DNA from: Nostoc sp. PCC 7120 = FACHB-418
GTDB lineage: Bacteria; Cyanobacteriota; Cyanobacteriia; Cyanobacteriales; Nostocaceae
Assembly (NCBI RefSeq): GCF_000009705.1
Contig: NC_003241.1
Location: forward strand, 1-5,584
Length of the DNA stretch: 5,584 bases
Direction of reading: 5' to 3'
The translations under genes were made by a program, and so were the position numbers. The notes under the pieces were generated by a model, which searched no databases, was not told the DNA's origin, and saw nothing but the letters and a program-made list of their open reading frames with translations. The stretch's first letter is position 1. Each line of letters begins with the position of its first letter. Positions 1-5,584 of the stretch are shown one piece after another.

Positions 1-1449
1 TACGTAGCGCGTCAGAAGGCTTATCACCCAGTAGCTAATTACTTGTCATCCCTTGAAAACTATGGCATAGAACATAGCATAGAATATGGCACAGTTGATA
101 GCATAAAATATGCCATGTCTGCAATACTACAATCTGTTGCAGACATACACGATGACCTAGCACAAACTATTTTAATTAAATGGCTAGTATCAGGTGTAGC
201 GAGAATATTTGAACCTGGGTGTAAGGTTGACATGATGCCTATCTTCTACGGCAGACAGGGAATAGGTAAATCATCATTCTTGCGGGAATTATGCCCTCAA
301 TCGGATTGGTTTAGTGACGACCATTCTGGCACGGGTGATAAGGATGCAATGATGTTGCTCAATCAATTTTGGATTCTAGAGATAGCAGAGTTTGAGAAAA
401 TCTATTCCAAGAGTGATGCAGAAACATTAAAAGCAATTGTCACAAAACTCGCTGATACTTACCGCGCCCCATACGACAAAGATTTGGAGACACACTTCAG
501 AAGATGTATTCTCGCCGCTACAGCTAACAGTCAAGACTTCTTGCGTGACTCATCCGGCGATCGCCGTTACCCAGTTATTGCCCTTCACCAAAAAGTAAAC
601 ATACCCTTGCTGATTGAGAAACGGGATGAGCTTTGGTTTTATGCGATGCAATTGTATAGACTTGGCTACCAATGGCATACGACACCAGAAGAAGACGCAA
701 AGGTAAGCATCAATAACGCTGCTTATCGTGGTTACGACATATTCGGGGAAGCGGTAGCCGATGCGGTCAAGTTTCCTGGTTCACCTCACGGGCTGATGGA
801 GAAAACCCGTATCGATTATGTATGGGAGAAAATCAACGCTCACAAGTCACCGTTGCCAGACTTAACCCAAAAGGATAGCCGCGCTATTGCTAACGCTCTA
901 AAACAACTTGGCTACGAACAGAAAAACGTGTGGACTGACGGTAGTAGCAAGAAGTTCTGGGTACTTACCTCACCCATTACCTCATTACCTGAGTTTTCAG
1001 ACTCAGGGCAGGGTGAGGTAAGGCATACACAGCAAGAGTTACAGCCATTCCTTACCTCATTACCTCAAATAAAACTTTTGAAAAAAAATACTAAGGTAGC
1101 AGAGAGCATCGTCGATGATAATCCCTACGCTCACCTTGATGATGAAAAAGAAAGTTTAAAGTCAGGTAATGAGGTAATGGAAGCCTCAAACGTAGACACG
1201 GCAAGCCTTACCTCACCATTACCTGACCTTGTAGACTCAGGTAATGATGCAGGAAATGAGGTAAAAATCGGCGATCGCGTAACCCTGATGGTAGATCACA
1301 GTTTCGCGCTGGCAGGCACAGCATTAGAAGTTGTGGGCATCAATGACAGATACATCAGATGCTTAAGATGTGACCGCAAGCAAAATCAGCCAGCCAGCCT
1401 GAGGGAAATTATCGTACTAGCTGACCAAGTGCAGTTGACCAACTCATAA
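1..1449 (+). CDS. VirE-family (PF05272-like) P-loop NTPase/helicase part of a primase-helicase replicase. The 5' end is open at the window edge, and the TTG at 43 in the ORF track is not the real start.
   Basis: Frame 1 is open from base 1 (YVARQKAYHPVANYLSSL...). It carries the HPV-x-YL motif typical of VirE/D5-like helicases and a Walker A (GRQGIGKS, 250-273). Further family-like blocks are WILEIAEFE, YRAPYDK, ATANSQDFLRDSSGDRRYPV and RDELWFYA. An S/P/T/D/E-rich linker and a small C-terminal domain follow, with stop TAA at 1447-1449. Confidence 0.9.
   Translation, partial: YVARQKAYHPVANYLSSLENYGIEHSIEYGTVDSIKYAMSAILQSVADIHDDLAQTILIKWLVSGVARIFEPGCKVDMMPIFYGRQGIGKSSFLRELCPQSDWFSDDHSGTGDKDAMMLLNQFWILEIAEFEKIYSKSDAETLKAIVTKLADTYRAPYDKDLETHFRRCILAATANSQDFLRDSSGDRRYPVIALHQKVNIPLLIEKRDELWFYAMQLYRLGYQWHTTPEEDAKVSINNAAYRGYDIFGEAVADAVKFPGSPHGLMEKTRIDYVWEKINAHKSPLPDLTQKDSRAIANALKQLGYEQKNVWTDGSSKKFWVLTSPITSLPEFSDSGQGEVRHTQQELQPFLTSLPQIKLLKKNTKVAESIVDDNPYAHLDDEKESLKSGNEVMEASNVDTASLTSPLPDLVDSGNDAGNEVKIGDRVTLMVDHSFALAGTALEVVGINDRYIRCLRCDRKQNQPASLREIIVLADQVQLTNS
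61..120. repeat. Five degenerate 12-bp tandem repeats (iteron-like) inside the replicase CDS.
   Basis: The units are tatggcatagaa / catagcatagaa / tatggcacagtt / gatagcataaaa / tatgccatgtct. Units 1 and 2 match at 10 of 12 positions, as do units 2 and 4. They encode the 4-aa periodic peptide YGIE-HSIE-YGTV-DSIK-YAMS. Confidence 0.7.
115..146. repeat. Perfect 10-bp stem, 12-nt loop hairpin immediately after the 12-mer array.
   Basis: ATGTCTGCAA (115-124) and TTGCAGACAT (137-146). Confidence 0.7.
965..1264. repeat. Dense field of TTACCTCA / TGAGGTAA direct and inverted repeats inside the replicase linker-coding region.
   Basis: TTACCT occurs at 965, 977, 985, 1052, 1060, 1208 and 1219. AGGTAA occurs at 1016, 1164, 1172, 1239 and 1259. 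There is an 18-bp perfect inverted repeat: CCATTACCTCATTACCTG (974-991) with CAGGTAATGAGGTAATGG (1163-1180). There is also a palindrome CATTACCTGA-N10-TCAGGTAATG (1217-1246). Confidence 0.85.
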
Positions 1450-1913: not shown

Positions 1914-1942
1914 TTGACGGGTAGTAACCTAAGCTATATAGT
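1914..1942 (+). promoter_or_regulatory. Sigma70-type promoter for the plus-strand operon.
   Basis: TTGACG (1914-1919), an exact 17-bp spacer, then TATAGT (1937-1942). This places it about 37 bp upstream of the ATG at 1979. Confidence 0.5.
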
Positions 1943-1972
1943 GATAGTCACAGTACACATCAGTTACTACCC
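1919..1972. promoter_or_regulatory. 10-bp perfect inverted repeat bracketing the -10 element. Candidate operator for the RHH protein.
   Basis: GGGTAGTAAC (1919-1928) and GTTACTACCC (1963-1972). CAGTAC also occurs twice (1951-1956 and 1972-1977), 21 bp apart. The repeats sit in the 90-bp divergent intergenic region. Confidence 0.45.
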
Positions 1973-2839: not shown

Positions 2840-2964
2840 CATCATCTAACACGGTTGTAGCTACCTCAATTTTTATGATTGGGGTGGCTATTTTTTTACT
2901 GGCATTATCCCTCAATGATGCCCCCAAGATGCGATTAGAAATAAGGATTGAAATCAATGGATGA
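2836..2964 (+). CDS. Small predicted single-pass membrane protein (42 aa), not in the supplied ORF track.
   Basis: Hand translation gives MTSSNTVVATSIFMIGVAIFLLALSLNDAPKMRLEIRIEING. It has a 20-residue hydrophobic helix followed by a charged tail. There is an ATGA start/stop overlap with the upstream gene, and an 8-nt overlap with the ATG (2957) of the ATPase gene. That pattern suggests translational coupling. Confidence 0.4.
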   Translation: MTSSNTVVATSIFMIGVAIFLLALSLNDAPKMRLEIRIEING

Positions 2965-4129
2965 TAAGGAATTACTCACGCTAGATATGCCCCTCCAGCG
3001 TATGAAACGCAGTGCTTGGGTAGCGATGCCCTTACCCGACAGTAAGGCAGCAATACGCTTTATTGGGTGGGCATCAGGTAGGCTGGCTTTTATGGCATTG
3101 TCTACCAGTTTAAGCATTATCAAAAATGCTGCTAAAGCTGTTATTTGGATATCGGAAAAAATTGAAGATGGGTTAAAACTTCTCACCCATTACTATGATG
3201 CACTCCCTTACATGGGAATGCCTCAAGACACACTTACGCTTGAGGCAATACCAGCTAACCAGGGGGCTAGCAATCTTCAGACTCCATCTGTAGATATCCT
3301 AGCAGGTATCGCGGGGAAACACTTACTAATAATTGGCGATACGGGAAGCGGTAAAAGTACGATCGCTCAGTACATTGCTGCCAGGAATTCATCACAGATA
3401 AAAGTTTATGATGCTGATGCCGCGCCGGATGATTGGCAAGGCTTGAAAGTAGTCGGCAAGGGTGGCGATTTTGGCGAGATTAACGCATCAATGAACGCTG
3501 ATATTGATGAATTAGAAAATAGAATCAAACTGCGATCGCAATCTGGCGATAATGCGCTCACTGGCAAGGAACTTTGCATCATTGCTGAAGAATTCCCCAG
3601 TTTAAAGGATGAGTGTGAAATTGCACCGGAATGGCTGGGTAAGCTGGCTAGGAGGGGTAGAAAGCCAAAGATATTTGTCATCGCTTTGTCACAGTCGGAC
3701 AGTGTAAAAGCGCTTGGCATTGAGGGTGACGGCGCTATCCGGCAGAACTTCAAATACTTACGATTGGGTAAGTTCGCGGTACAACACGCCAAAAAACTGG
3801 GTAATGATGCCATGGTGAACTGGCTTCAATCTGGCAAGTATCGAGCGATGCTGGACGATGAGCCAGCGCAAATGCCATCAATAGATAGTACACTTTTAGT
3901 ACACACGAGGTTGCTTGATAGTCGCGCGATCGCCGGCGAAAATCCGCCGGAACCACCGCCGGAAATGGATCTAACCAATTTACCTCATTCGCTAAAACCA
4001 GCTATTTTGGCGCTAAAACAGGAGGGCTGGAGTGATAGCAAGCTAATCAAGGAGGTGCTTGGCTACTCCGGCGGGAATTATCAAAAGGGCAAATTGATTC
4101 TGGATGAGTTACTAGGCAGGGGACAATAG
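2957..4129 (+). CDS. FtsK/SpoIIIE/TraB-like P-loop DNA translocase ATPase with a C-terminal helix-turn-helix-like domain.
   Basis: Walker A is LLIIGDTGSGKST (3335-3361) and Walker B-like is LCIIAEEFPSL (3575-3592). The blocks RRGRKPKIFVIALSQSDS and GAIRQNFKYLRL are collinear with the FtsK motifs (RAaGIHlilATQRPS and IKaN.ptRiaf). A proline-rich linker (NPPEPPPE) precedes a roughly 50-aa helical tail. I prefer ATG 2957, which has AAGGA 9 nt upstream, over the tracked TTG at 2948. Confidence 0.85.
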   Translation: MDDKELLTLDMPLQRMKRSAWVAMPLPDSKAAIRFIGWASGRLAFMALSTSLSIIKNAAKAVIWISEKIEDGLKLLTHYYDALPYMGMPQDTLTLEAIPANQGASNLQTPSVDILAGIAGKHLLIIGDTGSGKSTIAQYIAARNSSQIKVYDADAAPDDWQGLKVVGKGGDFGEINASMNADIDELENRIKLRSQSGDNALTGKELCIIAEEFPSLKDECEIAPEWLGKLARRGRKPKIFVIALSQSDSVKALGIEGDGAIRQNFKYLRLGKFAVQHAKKLGNDAMVNWLQSGKYRAMLDDEPAQMPSIDSTLLVHTRLLDSRAIAGENPPEPPPEMDLTNLPHSLKPAILALKQEGWSDSKLIKEVLGYSGGNYQKGKLILDELLGRGQ

Positions 4130-4435
4130 ATGATTTCGATAAATTACGAGCAGAAAAATCTAAGGATGGCTAAGAAGGGTACACCGCGCATCAGCGCGGA
4201 TGCCTACGACCAGGCGGAAATCGAGCGATTGGCAGAAAACCATAAAACCATTCGGTATCATGCCAGCAATGGTTTTGAATTCTCTATTGGGGTAGACAGT
4301 CGCCGTGTGTTGACTGCGCGTACTCAGATAGACAGCCGCATACATTACCGTTACGTGGGAACAATCGAGACGGTATCCAAGGAGCAACTGGAAGCGATCG
4401 CCAACGAATTTAAAGAAATATATGAGGGCAAATGA
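4130..4435 (+). CDS. Hypothetical protein (101 aa). Last gene of the operon.
   Basis: The ATG directly abuts the TAG stop of the ATPase gene (TAGATG). A G-rich SD-like AGGGGA sits at 4118-4123. An intrinsic terminator follows. I recognise no domain. Confidence 0.6.
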   Translation: MISINYEQKNLRMAKKGTPRISADAYDQAEIERLAENHKTIRYHASNGFEFSIGVDSRRVLTARTQIDSRIHYRYVGTIETVSKEQLEAIANEFKEIYEGK

Positions 4436-4451
4436 TATGATGCCCAAAAGC

Positions 4452-4500
4452 AAAACCCCGACTGGTTTTAGCGTCTTCCTGTCGGGGCTTTGTTTATTTC
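4452..4500 (+). terminator. Rho-independent terminator of the 1979-4435 operon.
   Basis: The GC-rich stem pairs CCCCGAC(t)GG (4456-4465) with CC(t)GTCGGGG (4478-4487). The T-rich tract CTTTGTTTATTTCTT follows, and an A-run (4452-4455) precedes the stem. Confidence 0.65.
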
Positions 4501-4507
4501 TTATTCG

Positions 4508-4667
4508 GAGTGCCTACGAGTGCCTATCCATGCCATAGAAACATGAGTAGCGGAGGCTTTTGACCACTGAATTAATTATGCCATATAGGAACTGAATAGT
4601 ACAGTCCATGCCATAACTTTTCAGCAAAAGTCTTAACTTATGCAATAAGAGCAAGGGTAGGCACTCG
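4508..4667. promoter_or_regulatory. Repeat-rich intergenic control region upstream of the replicase gene. Candidate origin, operator or leader.
   Basis: Tandem GAGTGCCTA copies lie at 4508-4516 and 4518-4526, with an inverted copy TAGGCACTC(G) at 4658-4667. There are three ATGCCATA boxes (4530, 4578, 4608), two ACTGAAT copies (4566, 4591) and a hairpin ACTTTT-CAGC-AAAAGT (4616-4631). A possible -35 TTGACC lies at 4560-4565, but the -10 is weak. Confidence 0.5.
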
Positions 4668-4690
4668 CTAATAAACTTTAGGAGTGACCC

Positions 4691-5584
4691 ATGGTAAACA
4701 CATTACAAAAAAACCAATCCAAAGAACAGACCATTGAATTTTTGTCCCAACAGCGTGGTATACCTGTTGACTGGCTTGAGGCTCACTGCAAGCGCGATCG
4801 CGACGGATGGCTGATTACTGGAGCTAATTATCAGCAACAGAAACGCCTAGATAAGCCTAGAACGACCAAGGACGGCAAGCAGGTTAAATATGTATCGCAC
4901 ACCAAGGATAAGCAGAAGTACGACATATTTATCCCAGTTGAGCCTACTTTTGGGCTACCGATAACGGATGATTACGACCGCGACGCGACGCTGGTGATCA
5001 CTGAAGGGGCATTCAAAGCTATAAAAGGTTGTAGCGAGGGCGTGTTGACTGTTAGCGTGCCTGGGGTAAATCAACTGTTCAAGCCCAAAGAAAGCGGCGG
5101 CGACTTGGTGAACGGACTGCACGCGCTCACCATTAGATATAAGAAAATAATCATCGCGTTTGACGCTGATGCCAGTTTTAAACCTCAAGTATGGGATGCC
5201 ATAAAGAAAGGGGCTATGGCATTAATTGAGCGCGATTGTGATGTAAAAATAGCTGTGTGGCAACATTCGGAAGAGACTAAAGGAATGGATGATTATATCA
5301 ACAAAGAAGGCATAGAAGCTTTCAAGTTAGTGTTAGAAAATGCGCTAGCTTTGGATGCTTGGGAACATCAATATCCGCGTCCAGAGGACAAGGCATCCAA
5401 AACAAAGCGAACAAAAGCACGGGAAGCAATAGAAAAATATTACGGCGATAGATTGCAGTGGAATGAATTAAAACAAAGAATAGAATTAGATGGCACTCAA
5501 TACAAAGCGGGTCATGCTTATATTGATATAGATAAGGATATCTGCATTGAGTTACCTAAAGAACTCGCTATGGACTTGATGGTA
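4691..5584 (+). CDS. N-terminal part of the primase-helicase replicase: a Toprim-like (DUF3854-type) domain followed by the start of the VirE N-terminal region. The 3' end is open at the window edge.
   Basis: ATG at 4691 follows AGGAG (4680-4684) with a 6-nt spacer. I translated it by hand and found 298 sense codons with no stop up to base 5584. Toprim-type acidic motifs are present: LVITEGAFKA (Glu codon 5003-5005) and IIIAFDADA (DxD, 5162-5170). The tail RLQWNELKQRIELDG matches the N-terminal region usually found upstream of VirE NTPase domains. It is missing from the supplied ORF track only because it has no stop in the window. Confidence 0.85.
   Translation, partial: MVNTLQKNQSKEQTIEFLSQQRGIPVDWLEAHCKRDRDGWLITGANYQQQKRLDKPRTTKDGKQVKYVSHTKDKQKYDIFIPVEPTFGLPITDDYDRDATLVITEGAFKAIKGCSEGVLTVSVPGVNQLFKPKESGGDLVNGLHALTIRYKKIIIAFDADASFKPQVWDAIKKGAMALIERDCDVKIAVWQHSEETKGMDDYINKEGIEAFKLVLENALALDAWEHQYPRPEDKASKTKRTKAREAIEKYYGDRLQWNELKQRIELDGTQYKAGHAYIDIDKDICIELPKELAMDLMV

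Follow-up and report, generated by a model that had tools for sequence, protein, structure and literature searches.

The rep promoters of the plasmids pPS10, F, P1 and pSC101, which are controlled by Rep, carry operator or inverted-repeat sites, and the arm-type fold of integrases reads tandem and inverted arm sites of 9-10 bp. Replication origins may also be embedded in initiator genes, as in lambda O, N15 repA and the RepA_N plasmids, and the ori of SaPI has two iteron sets around an AT-rich tract. For cyanobacterial replicases of the DUF3854 family, autonomous replication needs both the open reading frame (ORF) and the region upstream of it (PMC10079941, PMC9978351). Here we consider such an upstream region, positions 4500-4690 of pCC7120-zeta (NC_003241; hereafter zeta), the smallest replicon of the major model cyanobacterium Nostoc sp. 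PCC 7120; the window that was analysed, 5,584 bp, is the whole of this complete circular plasmid. The region directly precedes the replicase gene, rep, whose ORF (4691..5584 joined to 1..1449, 780 aa) crosses the coordinate origin, and whose product, Rep, combines a DUF3854 domain (Toprim-like, E 1e-21) with a VapE-like P-loop domain (E 2e-62) and matches dnaG weakly. The region is a genuine, non-random cluster of cis-elements. We read it tentatively, with somewhat less than even confidence, as a cis-regulatory region of rep whose words are read by protein on double-stranded DNA, and we place the probable iteron origin of the plasmid inside rep, at 965-1264, not at 4500-4690.

Between the terminator of the upstream operon and the ribosome-binding site of rep, the original prediction had seen 190 bp without a credible ORF. 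No gene is called there in 17 independent assemblies, and the only ORF, of 46 aa with a TTG start, is on the minus strand. The terminator that it had placed upstream is real, consisting of the hairpin at 4448-4495 and a T-run (minimum free energy (MFE) -21.9, z -2.5). The features of the region and its borders are as follows.

4448..4495, plus strand: terminator hairpin of the upstream operon, a G+C-rich stem of 7+7 bp and then TTTGTTTATTTCTTATT
4508..4529, plus strand: tandem GAGTGCCTA pair with a 10-bp period (extended words GAGTGCCTACGA and GAGTGCCTATCC), 165-183 nt before the rep ATG
4527..4537, plus strand: ATGCCATA box 1 (TCCATGCCATA)
4576..4585, plus strand: ATGCCATA box 2 (TTATGCCATA), whose reverse complement forms TGGCATAAT, extended -10-like on the minus strand
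4605..4615, plus strand: ATGCCATA box 3 (TCCATGCCATA), which pairs with box 2 in the palindrome described below
4638..4647, plus strand: degenerate box 4 (TTATGCAATA)
4655..4667, minus strand: inverted third GAGTGCCTA copy, reading GAGTGCCTACCC, 24-36 nt before the rep ATG
4680..4693, plus strand: ribosome-binding site of rep, AGGAG (4680-4684), with the ATG start at 4691

The repeat words stand exactly where they had been described. Two GAGTGCCTA copies stand 10 bp apart (4508-4516 and 4518-4526), a period that Tandem Repeats Finder also gives; the 10-mer CGAGTGCCTA at 4517-4526 recurs in inverted form at 4658-4667, which leaves 131 bp between the two arms; and exact ATGCCATA boxes lie at 4530, 4578 and 4608, while one further copy, at 4640, has a single mismatch. 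All three exact copies of GAGTGCCTA on the plasmid lie in the region, two in tandem and one inverted, the last at 24-33 nt from the rep ATG on its upstream side. ATGCCATA has seven exact copies plasmid-wide against 0.30 expected (Bonferroni 1.5e-4), without orientation bias (4 plus, 3 minus) and with four of them in coding DNA, at 61, 3091, 5196 and 5215; when one mismatch is allowed, it has 20 hits against 7.6 +/- 2.7 expected, a number reached in 0 of 200 shuffles. In a first-order Markov simulation of the region, the probability of a 9-mer occurring at least three times was 0.0026, and that of an 8-mer doing so was 0.008. Other observations of the original prediction did not rise above chance: the ACTGAAT duplicates are present at 4566 and 4591, but a 7-mer pair is expected about once per 190 bp, and the partial copies of the word at 4201 and 2760 belong to the 14 region 9-mers that recur elsewhere, against 8.8 +/- 4.0 expected (P = 0.12). 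An exact 18-nt pattern search of genome contigs gave 11 hits in unrelated taxa, about the chance number. A second cluster of ATGCCATA-like words was observed inside rep, at 58-146, where a perfect 10-bp inverted repeat (115-124 / 137-146) comes after five TATGGCATAG-like units that recur every 12 bp; this cluster sits in an insertion in the primase-helicase linker that is absent from most homologues.

The words are set in a larger symmetry, which the original prediction had missed.

4501..4687, no strand assigned: single imperfect palindrome with its apex near 4595-4601, spanning the whole intergenic region

As plus-strand RNA, this palindrome folds into one hairpin with 64 pairs and an MFE of -62.4 kcal/mol; its z-score is -4.67, none of 200 shuffles did as well, and with DNA parameters the z-score is -3.08. 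The arm-to-arm alignment has 61 Watson-Crick positions, 7 G-U and 4 A-C, an asymmetry that does not decide which strand is functional. In a sliding scan of the plasmid (190-nt windows, mononucleotide shuffles), 4500-4690 and 965-1264 ranked as the two most structured. In the MFE structure, the main stem is closed by the 10-nt arms, and the inverted copy at 4655..4667 has 10 nt of perfect complementarity to either of the tandem copies. The claim that these arms could close a structured RNA just before the Shine-Dalgarno (SD) sequence of rep is borne out to this extent, but the RNA has neither an Rfam match nor a homologous region in relatives; in Rfam 15, the best hit near the region was BSnc120 (E = 0.24; 21.6 bits, with the gathering threshold at 114), over the terminator hairpin. 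The perfect hairpin proposed at 4616-4631 does have its ACTTTT/AAAAGT stem, but these 6 bp are one segment of the larger structure. Boxes 2 and 3 pair with each other because ATGCCAT is nearly its own reverse complement, and much of the impression of ordered repeats therefore follows from the palindrome itself. The palindrome does not account for the tandem GAGTGCCTA pair, since the two copies cannot both be paired at once.

The most over-represented word of the plasmid lies elsewhere. An unbiased k-mer scan returned TTACCTCA/TGAGGTAA, with nine copies against 0.21 expected (Bonferroni 1e-8), and when the variant TTACCTGA was included, 12 exact copies were found in 965-1264 and one elsewhere.

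965..1264, no strand assigned: TTACCTSA array of 12 exact copies, oriented +++-++ and then --++--, with an AT-rich tract (1066-1096) between

The tract is ~80% A+T, the array folds with z = -10.6, and the whole lies in the 3' part of rep, where it encodes the variable C-terminal linker of Rep. Copies in plus orientation encode L-T-S and those in minus orientation G/N-E-V; the constraint is therefore on the DNA. Seven related replicases carry plasmid-specific arrays at the same in-gene position (L025 weakly), not upstream of rep, and in the Rep alignment these arrays show as short peptide repeats (for example, VVTEVVT...PVTTF) in an otherwise unalignable linker. The in-gene arrays of the relatives are listed by locus.

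L020, 4313-4566: nine copies of GGTAGTAAC
L018: five copies of GGTAGTGAC
L022: eight to nine copies of GGTTGTAAC
L023: seven copies of GCACCAACCT
L038: nine copies of AGGTCTGCA
L044 (Nostoc sp. UHCC 0302 plasmid): ten copies of GGTGTCAAC

Given the TTACCTSA array and the arrays at the same position in relatives, the in-gene array is the likelier iteron origin. TTACCTSA is absent from 4500-4690 even at one mismatch; the region offers only 2+1 copies of a different 9-mer, and it is not the AT-richest part of the plasmid, since the G+C content of 4501-4700 is 0.41, where the plasmid averages 0.44 and falls as low as 0.34 at 2201-2400. These results weaken the suggestion that 4500-4690 is itself an origin with iterons and, because the Rep word is missing from it, the region is best read as a set of sites for other DNA-binding proteins.

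In the mechanism that we propose for such a control region, two families of words would be recognized. The first, GAGTGCCTA(YCC), would comprise the two copies that stand in helical phase just after the terminator and the third that is inverted before the rep start; the second, ATGCCATA, would comprise the three to four copies between the GAGTGCCTA ends. A small plasmid-encoded DNA-binding protein would occupy the tandem pair at the far end and the inverted copy near the rep start, with Alr9505 (arm-type-like) as the first candidate and Asl9502, a ribbon-helix-helix (RHH) protein, as the second. With both ends occupied, a bridge of ~140 bp would form, and this bridge would restrict transcription that enters the region or begins within it, and thereby set the replicase level and the copy number, while Rep would initiate replication by binding the array of its own word in rep. 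The identity of the binder, the looping of the DNA and the direction of regulation are parts of this scheme that we infer.

Protein sites are suggested by the exact repetition of words, both direct and inverted, among them the tandem pair that the palindrome leaves unexplained; by the enrichment of ATGCCATA in coding DNA, where it behaves as a sequence motif and not as RNA structure; and by the position of one GAGTGCCTA copy next to the ribosome-binding site of rep. Relatives have repeats of their own upstream of rep (AAAGTCTGTGTA twice in L023 and CTTGACGG four to five times in L020), and palindromes are found there in L022, L041 and L042; such differing repeats would be the look of protein sites that co-evolve with their readers. 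Of the earlier proposal that the layout serves as an operator through which the replicase regulates itself, with the RHH protein as a further reader, the operator is the best fit, but neither binder is obvious: the word of Rep is missing, and the repeat at the RHH protein's own promoter differs, being only loosely similar. A third protein is encoded next to the region.

4166..4435, plus strand: alr9505, an orphan gene directly upstream of the region, 89 aa from the ATG at 4166

A single-sequence model of Alr9505 (predicted local distance difference test 91) has its best TM-score matches among the arm-type DNA-binding domains of P4-like integrases (3rmp_C, 0.52/0.58; 3jtz, 0.49/0.54), and on this predicted fold we consider it a candidate reader of the repeats. 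Asl9502 is assigned to the RHH proteins by RHH_1 (E = 5e-5). That a stand-alone, integrase-derived arm-type domain, Alr9505, was recruited as a copy-number regulator that loops ~140 bp via tandem and inverted GAGTGCCTA sites before a rep gene with its own internal origin is a model-based conjecture that we hold to be improbable; if true, such looping would couple two processes in a filamentous cyanobacterium, replication and the expression of an FtsK-like operon for transfer or spreading.

Several results weigh against a protein-read control region. Alr9505 had no homologues in two exhaustive searches, which leaves the relatives without this supposed regulator, and the Foldseek E-values of its fold matches are weak (0.8-0.9). 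Within the region, no promoter-like site is above chance (the plus-strand candidates, TACAGT at 4600 and TAACTT at 4614 and 4634, are weak), and the controlled promoter of rep is thus not located. In zeta, the RHH promoter region and 4500-4690 share no 7-mer. Of the two strands, the plus strand has the slightly stronger fold (z -4.7, with -3.4 for the minus strand), which would also fit a plus-strand RNA. Finally, the words of the region are not conserved in any relative. The original prediction had tied its case to their conservation in related elements, and none shares them; we do not count this as a refutation of function, because it is expected of co-evolving sites at ~34% identity. The nearest replicases are indeed that distant (in the protein database, a cluster of identical sequences is followed by others at <=34%), and neither DNA searches of PLSDB for near and distant relatives nor a protein scan of genome contigs for close relatives returned anything. 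The upstream regions of the relatives carry different repeats and hairpins and are not alignable with that of zeta, and the similarity of the positionally equivalent region of the Gloeotrichia element (L025, described below) is not significant (P = 0.23).

The same stretch might instead act as RNA, in the form of a structured rep leader and/or an antisense-RNA target, which we regard as unlikely but worth serious consideration. One further feature enters here.

4433..4441, plus strand: extended -10-like TGATATGAT at the alr9505 stop codon, the best plus-strand match near the region, not above chance

A leader would arise by read-through of the operon terminator or from TGATATGAT, and the foot of its hairpin would occlude the ribosome-binding site; with a start near 4448 from TGATATGAT, the whole region would be the rep leader. 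In the antisense version, a minus-strand counter-transcript starting from TGGCATAAT (4583-4575) or TAAAGT (4680-4675) would end at a bidirectional terminator, and Rep translation would be adjusted by this transcript or by RNase processing, on the pattern of ColE2, R1, pMV158 or pSYSA. The strong fold, the arms that close it, the pairing of SD bases 4682-4684 with 4504-4506 at the palindrome foot and the better folding of the plus strand are all consistent with an RNA, as is the fact that, of the plus-strand promoter-like sites, the best one precedes the entire region. The terminator hairpin is potentially bidirectional, as judged from its sequence, with a T-run on both strands; its minus strand also reads as a stem and then TTTTGCTTTTGGG. 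Strong hairpins lie directly upstream of rep in L018/L020, L023, L025 and L042, some followed by U-runs or covering the SD, and the related CyRepA1 is controlled by overlapping RNAs (PMC9978351). However, the coding iteron array folds far better (z = -10.6), which shows that inverted DNA words suffice to produce z-scores of this kind here; the pairs at the hairpin foot over the SD are weak and mostly G-U; and an RNA fold explains neither the tandem duplicate nor the plasmid-wide copies of ATGCCATA. The plasmid has no excess of promoter-like matches over shuffled sequence, Rfam gave no match, and the more than 80 assemblies are identical in the region, so that they hold no variation for covariation.

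A role in replication itself would take the palindrome as an origin or auxiliary site that, extruded or single-stranded, primes or loads the Toprim-type primase-helicase, in the manner of ssiA/ssiB of RSF1010 or of sso elements, or alternatively as a second cis site like P4 crr; we consider this rather improbable. The long imperfect palindrome is non-coding, adjoins rep and folds as single-stranded DNA on both strands, and Rep has the primase-like domain that such a site would call for. The hexamer TAGCGT, which we take to be the CS-6 motif of ssoA single-strand origins, is found in the loop of the adjacent terminator hairpin (4469-4474), perhaps by coincidence. Single-stranded intermediates have been reported for pCC5.2, a small plasmid with a DUF3854 Rep (cited in PMC10079941). 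Against such a site, the Rep-type array and its AT-rich tract lie elsewhere, at a position conserved across relatives; the region, at 41% G+C, is near the plasmid mean of 44%, and the AT-richest stretch is 2201-2400; no HUH rolling-circle Rep is encoded on the plasmid; and relatives do not conserve a palindrome of this kind before rep. We find it very unlikely that the region is a recombination or transfer site, either for multimer resolution or attP-like with Alr9505, or with clt-like 8-bp repeats for the translocase Alr9504. The arm-type-like fold of Alr9505, with its weak E-values, and the tyrosine recombinases next to rep in several relatives would suit the former, and the three to four direct ATGCCATA 8-mers downstream of the alr9504 operon, together with the FtsK and TcpA motor-domain matches of Alr9504 and its conserved C-terminal three-helix domain, would suit the latter; but zeta encodes no recombinase, no core-type crossover site was identified, and the ATGCCATA copies show no orientation bias. 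The reading of 4500-4690 as protein sites that control rep is the one that we retain, at the tentative strength given above.

The operon upstream of the region includes alr9504 (2948-4129). In Foldseek, the model of its product was matched to FtsK motor domains and to TcpA (E 6e-7 to 2e-6, probability 1.0); the protein has a long N-terminal helix and the C-terminal three-helix domain just mentioned, and the module to which it belongs may, on this model, be a TraB-like DNA-transfer or spreading module. More than 100 homologues of Alr9504 were observed on small plasmids, mostly of filamentous cyanobacteria, in the layout RHH protein, small membrane ORFs, ATPase, small ORF and large Rep. As a target of this FtsK-like ATPase, ATGCCATA was rejected: it is absent from L038, L041 and L042, and these share no enriched 8-mer, despite translocases that are 52-68% identical and have the conserved C-terminal domain.

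The operon has a promoter of its own, next to the divergent RHH gene.

1914-1942: operon promoter, TTGACG-17-TATAGT
1919..1972, no strand assigned: inverted repeat GGGTAGTAACC / AGTTACTACCC bracketing the operon promoter, a candidate RHH operator

From its sequence, this repeat is probably the RHH operator. The word at the operon promoter resembles GAGTGCCTACCC at 9/12 positions, a likeness that was defined post hoc (6 hits against 1.55 expected), and a comparison of the RHH promoter region with the region upstream of rep in L041 and L042 gave no convincing shared words. Within 1914-1972, it is the operon promoter that GGGTAGTAAC / GTTACTACCC bracket, and the 9-mer GGTAGTAAC seen here is at the same time the word of the in-gene array of the related plasmid L020.

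The sequence of zeta is almost invariant. Contigs with the same replicase in Logan, ENA and JGI consist of the 5,584 bp plus a terminal assembly overlap and match the window except at 4713, where A/C (N8T in Rep) is the sole polymorphism among the more than 80 assemblies. Six HIP1 octamers (GCGATCGC) are present and indicate a cyanobacterium. Almost all genes are on one strand, and the GC skew is uninformative because of this nearly one-stranded gene set. The AT-richest spacer (2279-2345, 34% G+C) lies upstream of asr9503, the most highly expressed gene, and carries the inverted repeats TTCCACAT / ATGTGGAA and the direct repeats ATGTGGAACAA / ATATGGAACAA; within it, TATTCCACA resembles a DnaA box. 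The ORFs of the window agree with the published zeta gene coordinates, in which alr9504 ends at 4129, alr9505 at 4435, asr9503 at 2565 and asr9501 at 1700, and asl9502 occupies 1705-1988 (PMC3141674, Additional file 7). The original annotation of zeta lists five genes only (PMC3898017); the replicase is overlooked in it because the gene crosses the coordinate origin. The only published small-RNA candidate of zeta that was found, with its transcription start at 2684, a terminator at 2890 and ~8,100 reads (PMC4734099, Table S3), lies inside unannotated ORFs of 87 and 42 aa and ends at a hairpin (2857-2891), outside 4500-4690. The closest relative of Rep (34% identity) is encoded by an integrated element in the Gloeotrichia echinulata chromosome (L025, 5547-10469), in which an integrase is followed by an alr9504-like ATPase (44% identity) and Rep; plasmids and integrative elements thus exchange the ATPase-Rep pair.

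The region at 4500-4690 is an element of an ordinary kind, a replicon control region, that is uncharacterised here. The more useful result is that the probable origin has been moved into rep, together with the family-wide rule behind that move: arrays inside the gene, in the 3' linker of DUF3854/VapE-like replicases, would provide a simple rule for locating the origins of small cyanobacterial plasmids. The distinction between a control region at 4500-4690 and a likely origin at 965-1264 also indicates which fragments a zeta-based shuttle vector must keep, and which could be changed to alter copy number.

Set against the described systems, zeta shares parts with several. Like the Streptomyces TraB-clt system, it encodes an FtsK-family translocase next to direct 8-bp repeats (ATGCCATA), but unlike that system, its 8-mer does not recur on plasmids that have the same translocase C-terminal domain. 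With ssiA/ssiB of the RSF1010 oriV and with ssoA it has in common a long imperfect non-coding palindrome next to a plasmid-encoded primase, although zeta has no separate iteron-binding RepC, no HUH Rep and no ssi or sso signature in the palindrome itself. The arm-type sites of lambda and P4-like integrases (PDB 3rmp, 3jtz) likewise combine tandem 9-10-bp sites about one helical turn apart with a distant inverted site, and their binding domain is the closest predicted fold of the adjacent alr9505 product (TM 0.5-0.58, statistically weak); those sites, however, belong to attachment sites, whereas zeta has neither a catalytic integrase nor a recognisable core, and its words stand upstream of rep. 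The operators in the rep promoters of pPS10, F, P1 and pSC101 resemble the region in having direct and inverted words between an upstream terminator and the ribosome-binding site of rep, with one copy near the start codon and with plasmid-specific sites; they differ in that the zeta word is not the Rep-type TTACCTSA and its inverted arms are 131 bp apart and not compact. The control region of pSYSA in Synechocystis 6803 (ssr7036/asRNA1-CyRepA1, PMC9978351) also belongs to a DUF3854 primase-helicase Rep whose upstream region matters, and a strongly structured upstream sequence with a terminator that is potentially usable from both strands is common to zeta and to the control of pSYSA, ColE2, R1 and pMV158; by contrast, zeta lacks a small ORF with an overlapping antisense RNA and is not similar to pSYSA in sequence, and the helicase module of CyRepA1 is DEXDc where that of the zeta Rep is VapE-like. 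The comparison with initiator genes that contain their own origin (lambda O, N15 repA and the RepA_N plasmids), and with the SaPI ori, concerns the predicted origin at 965-1264, where short words in both orientations likewise flank an AT-rich tract within a variable linker of the initiator; the Rep family differs, that of zeta being DUF3854 plus VapE-like.

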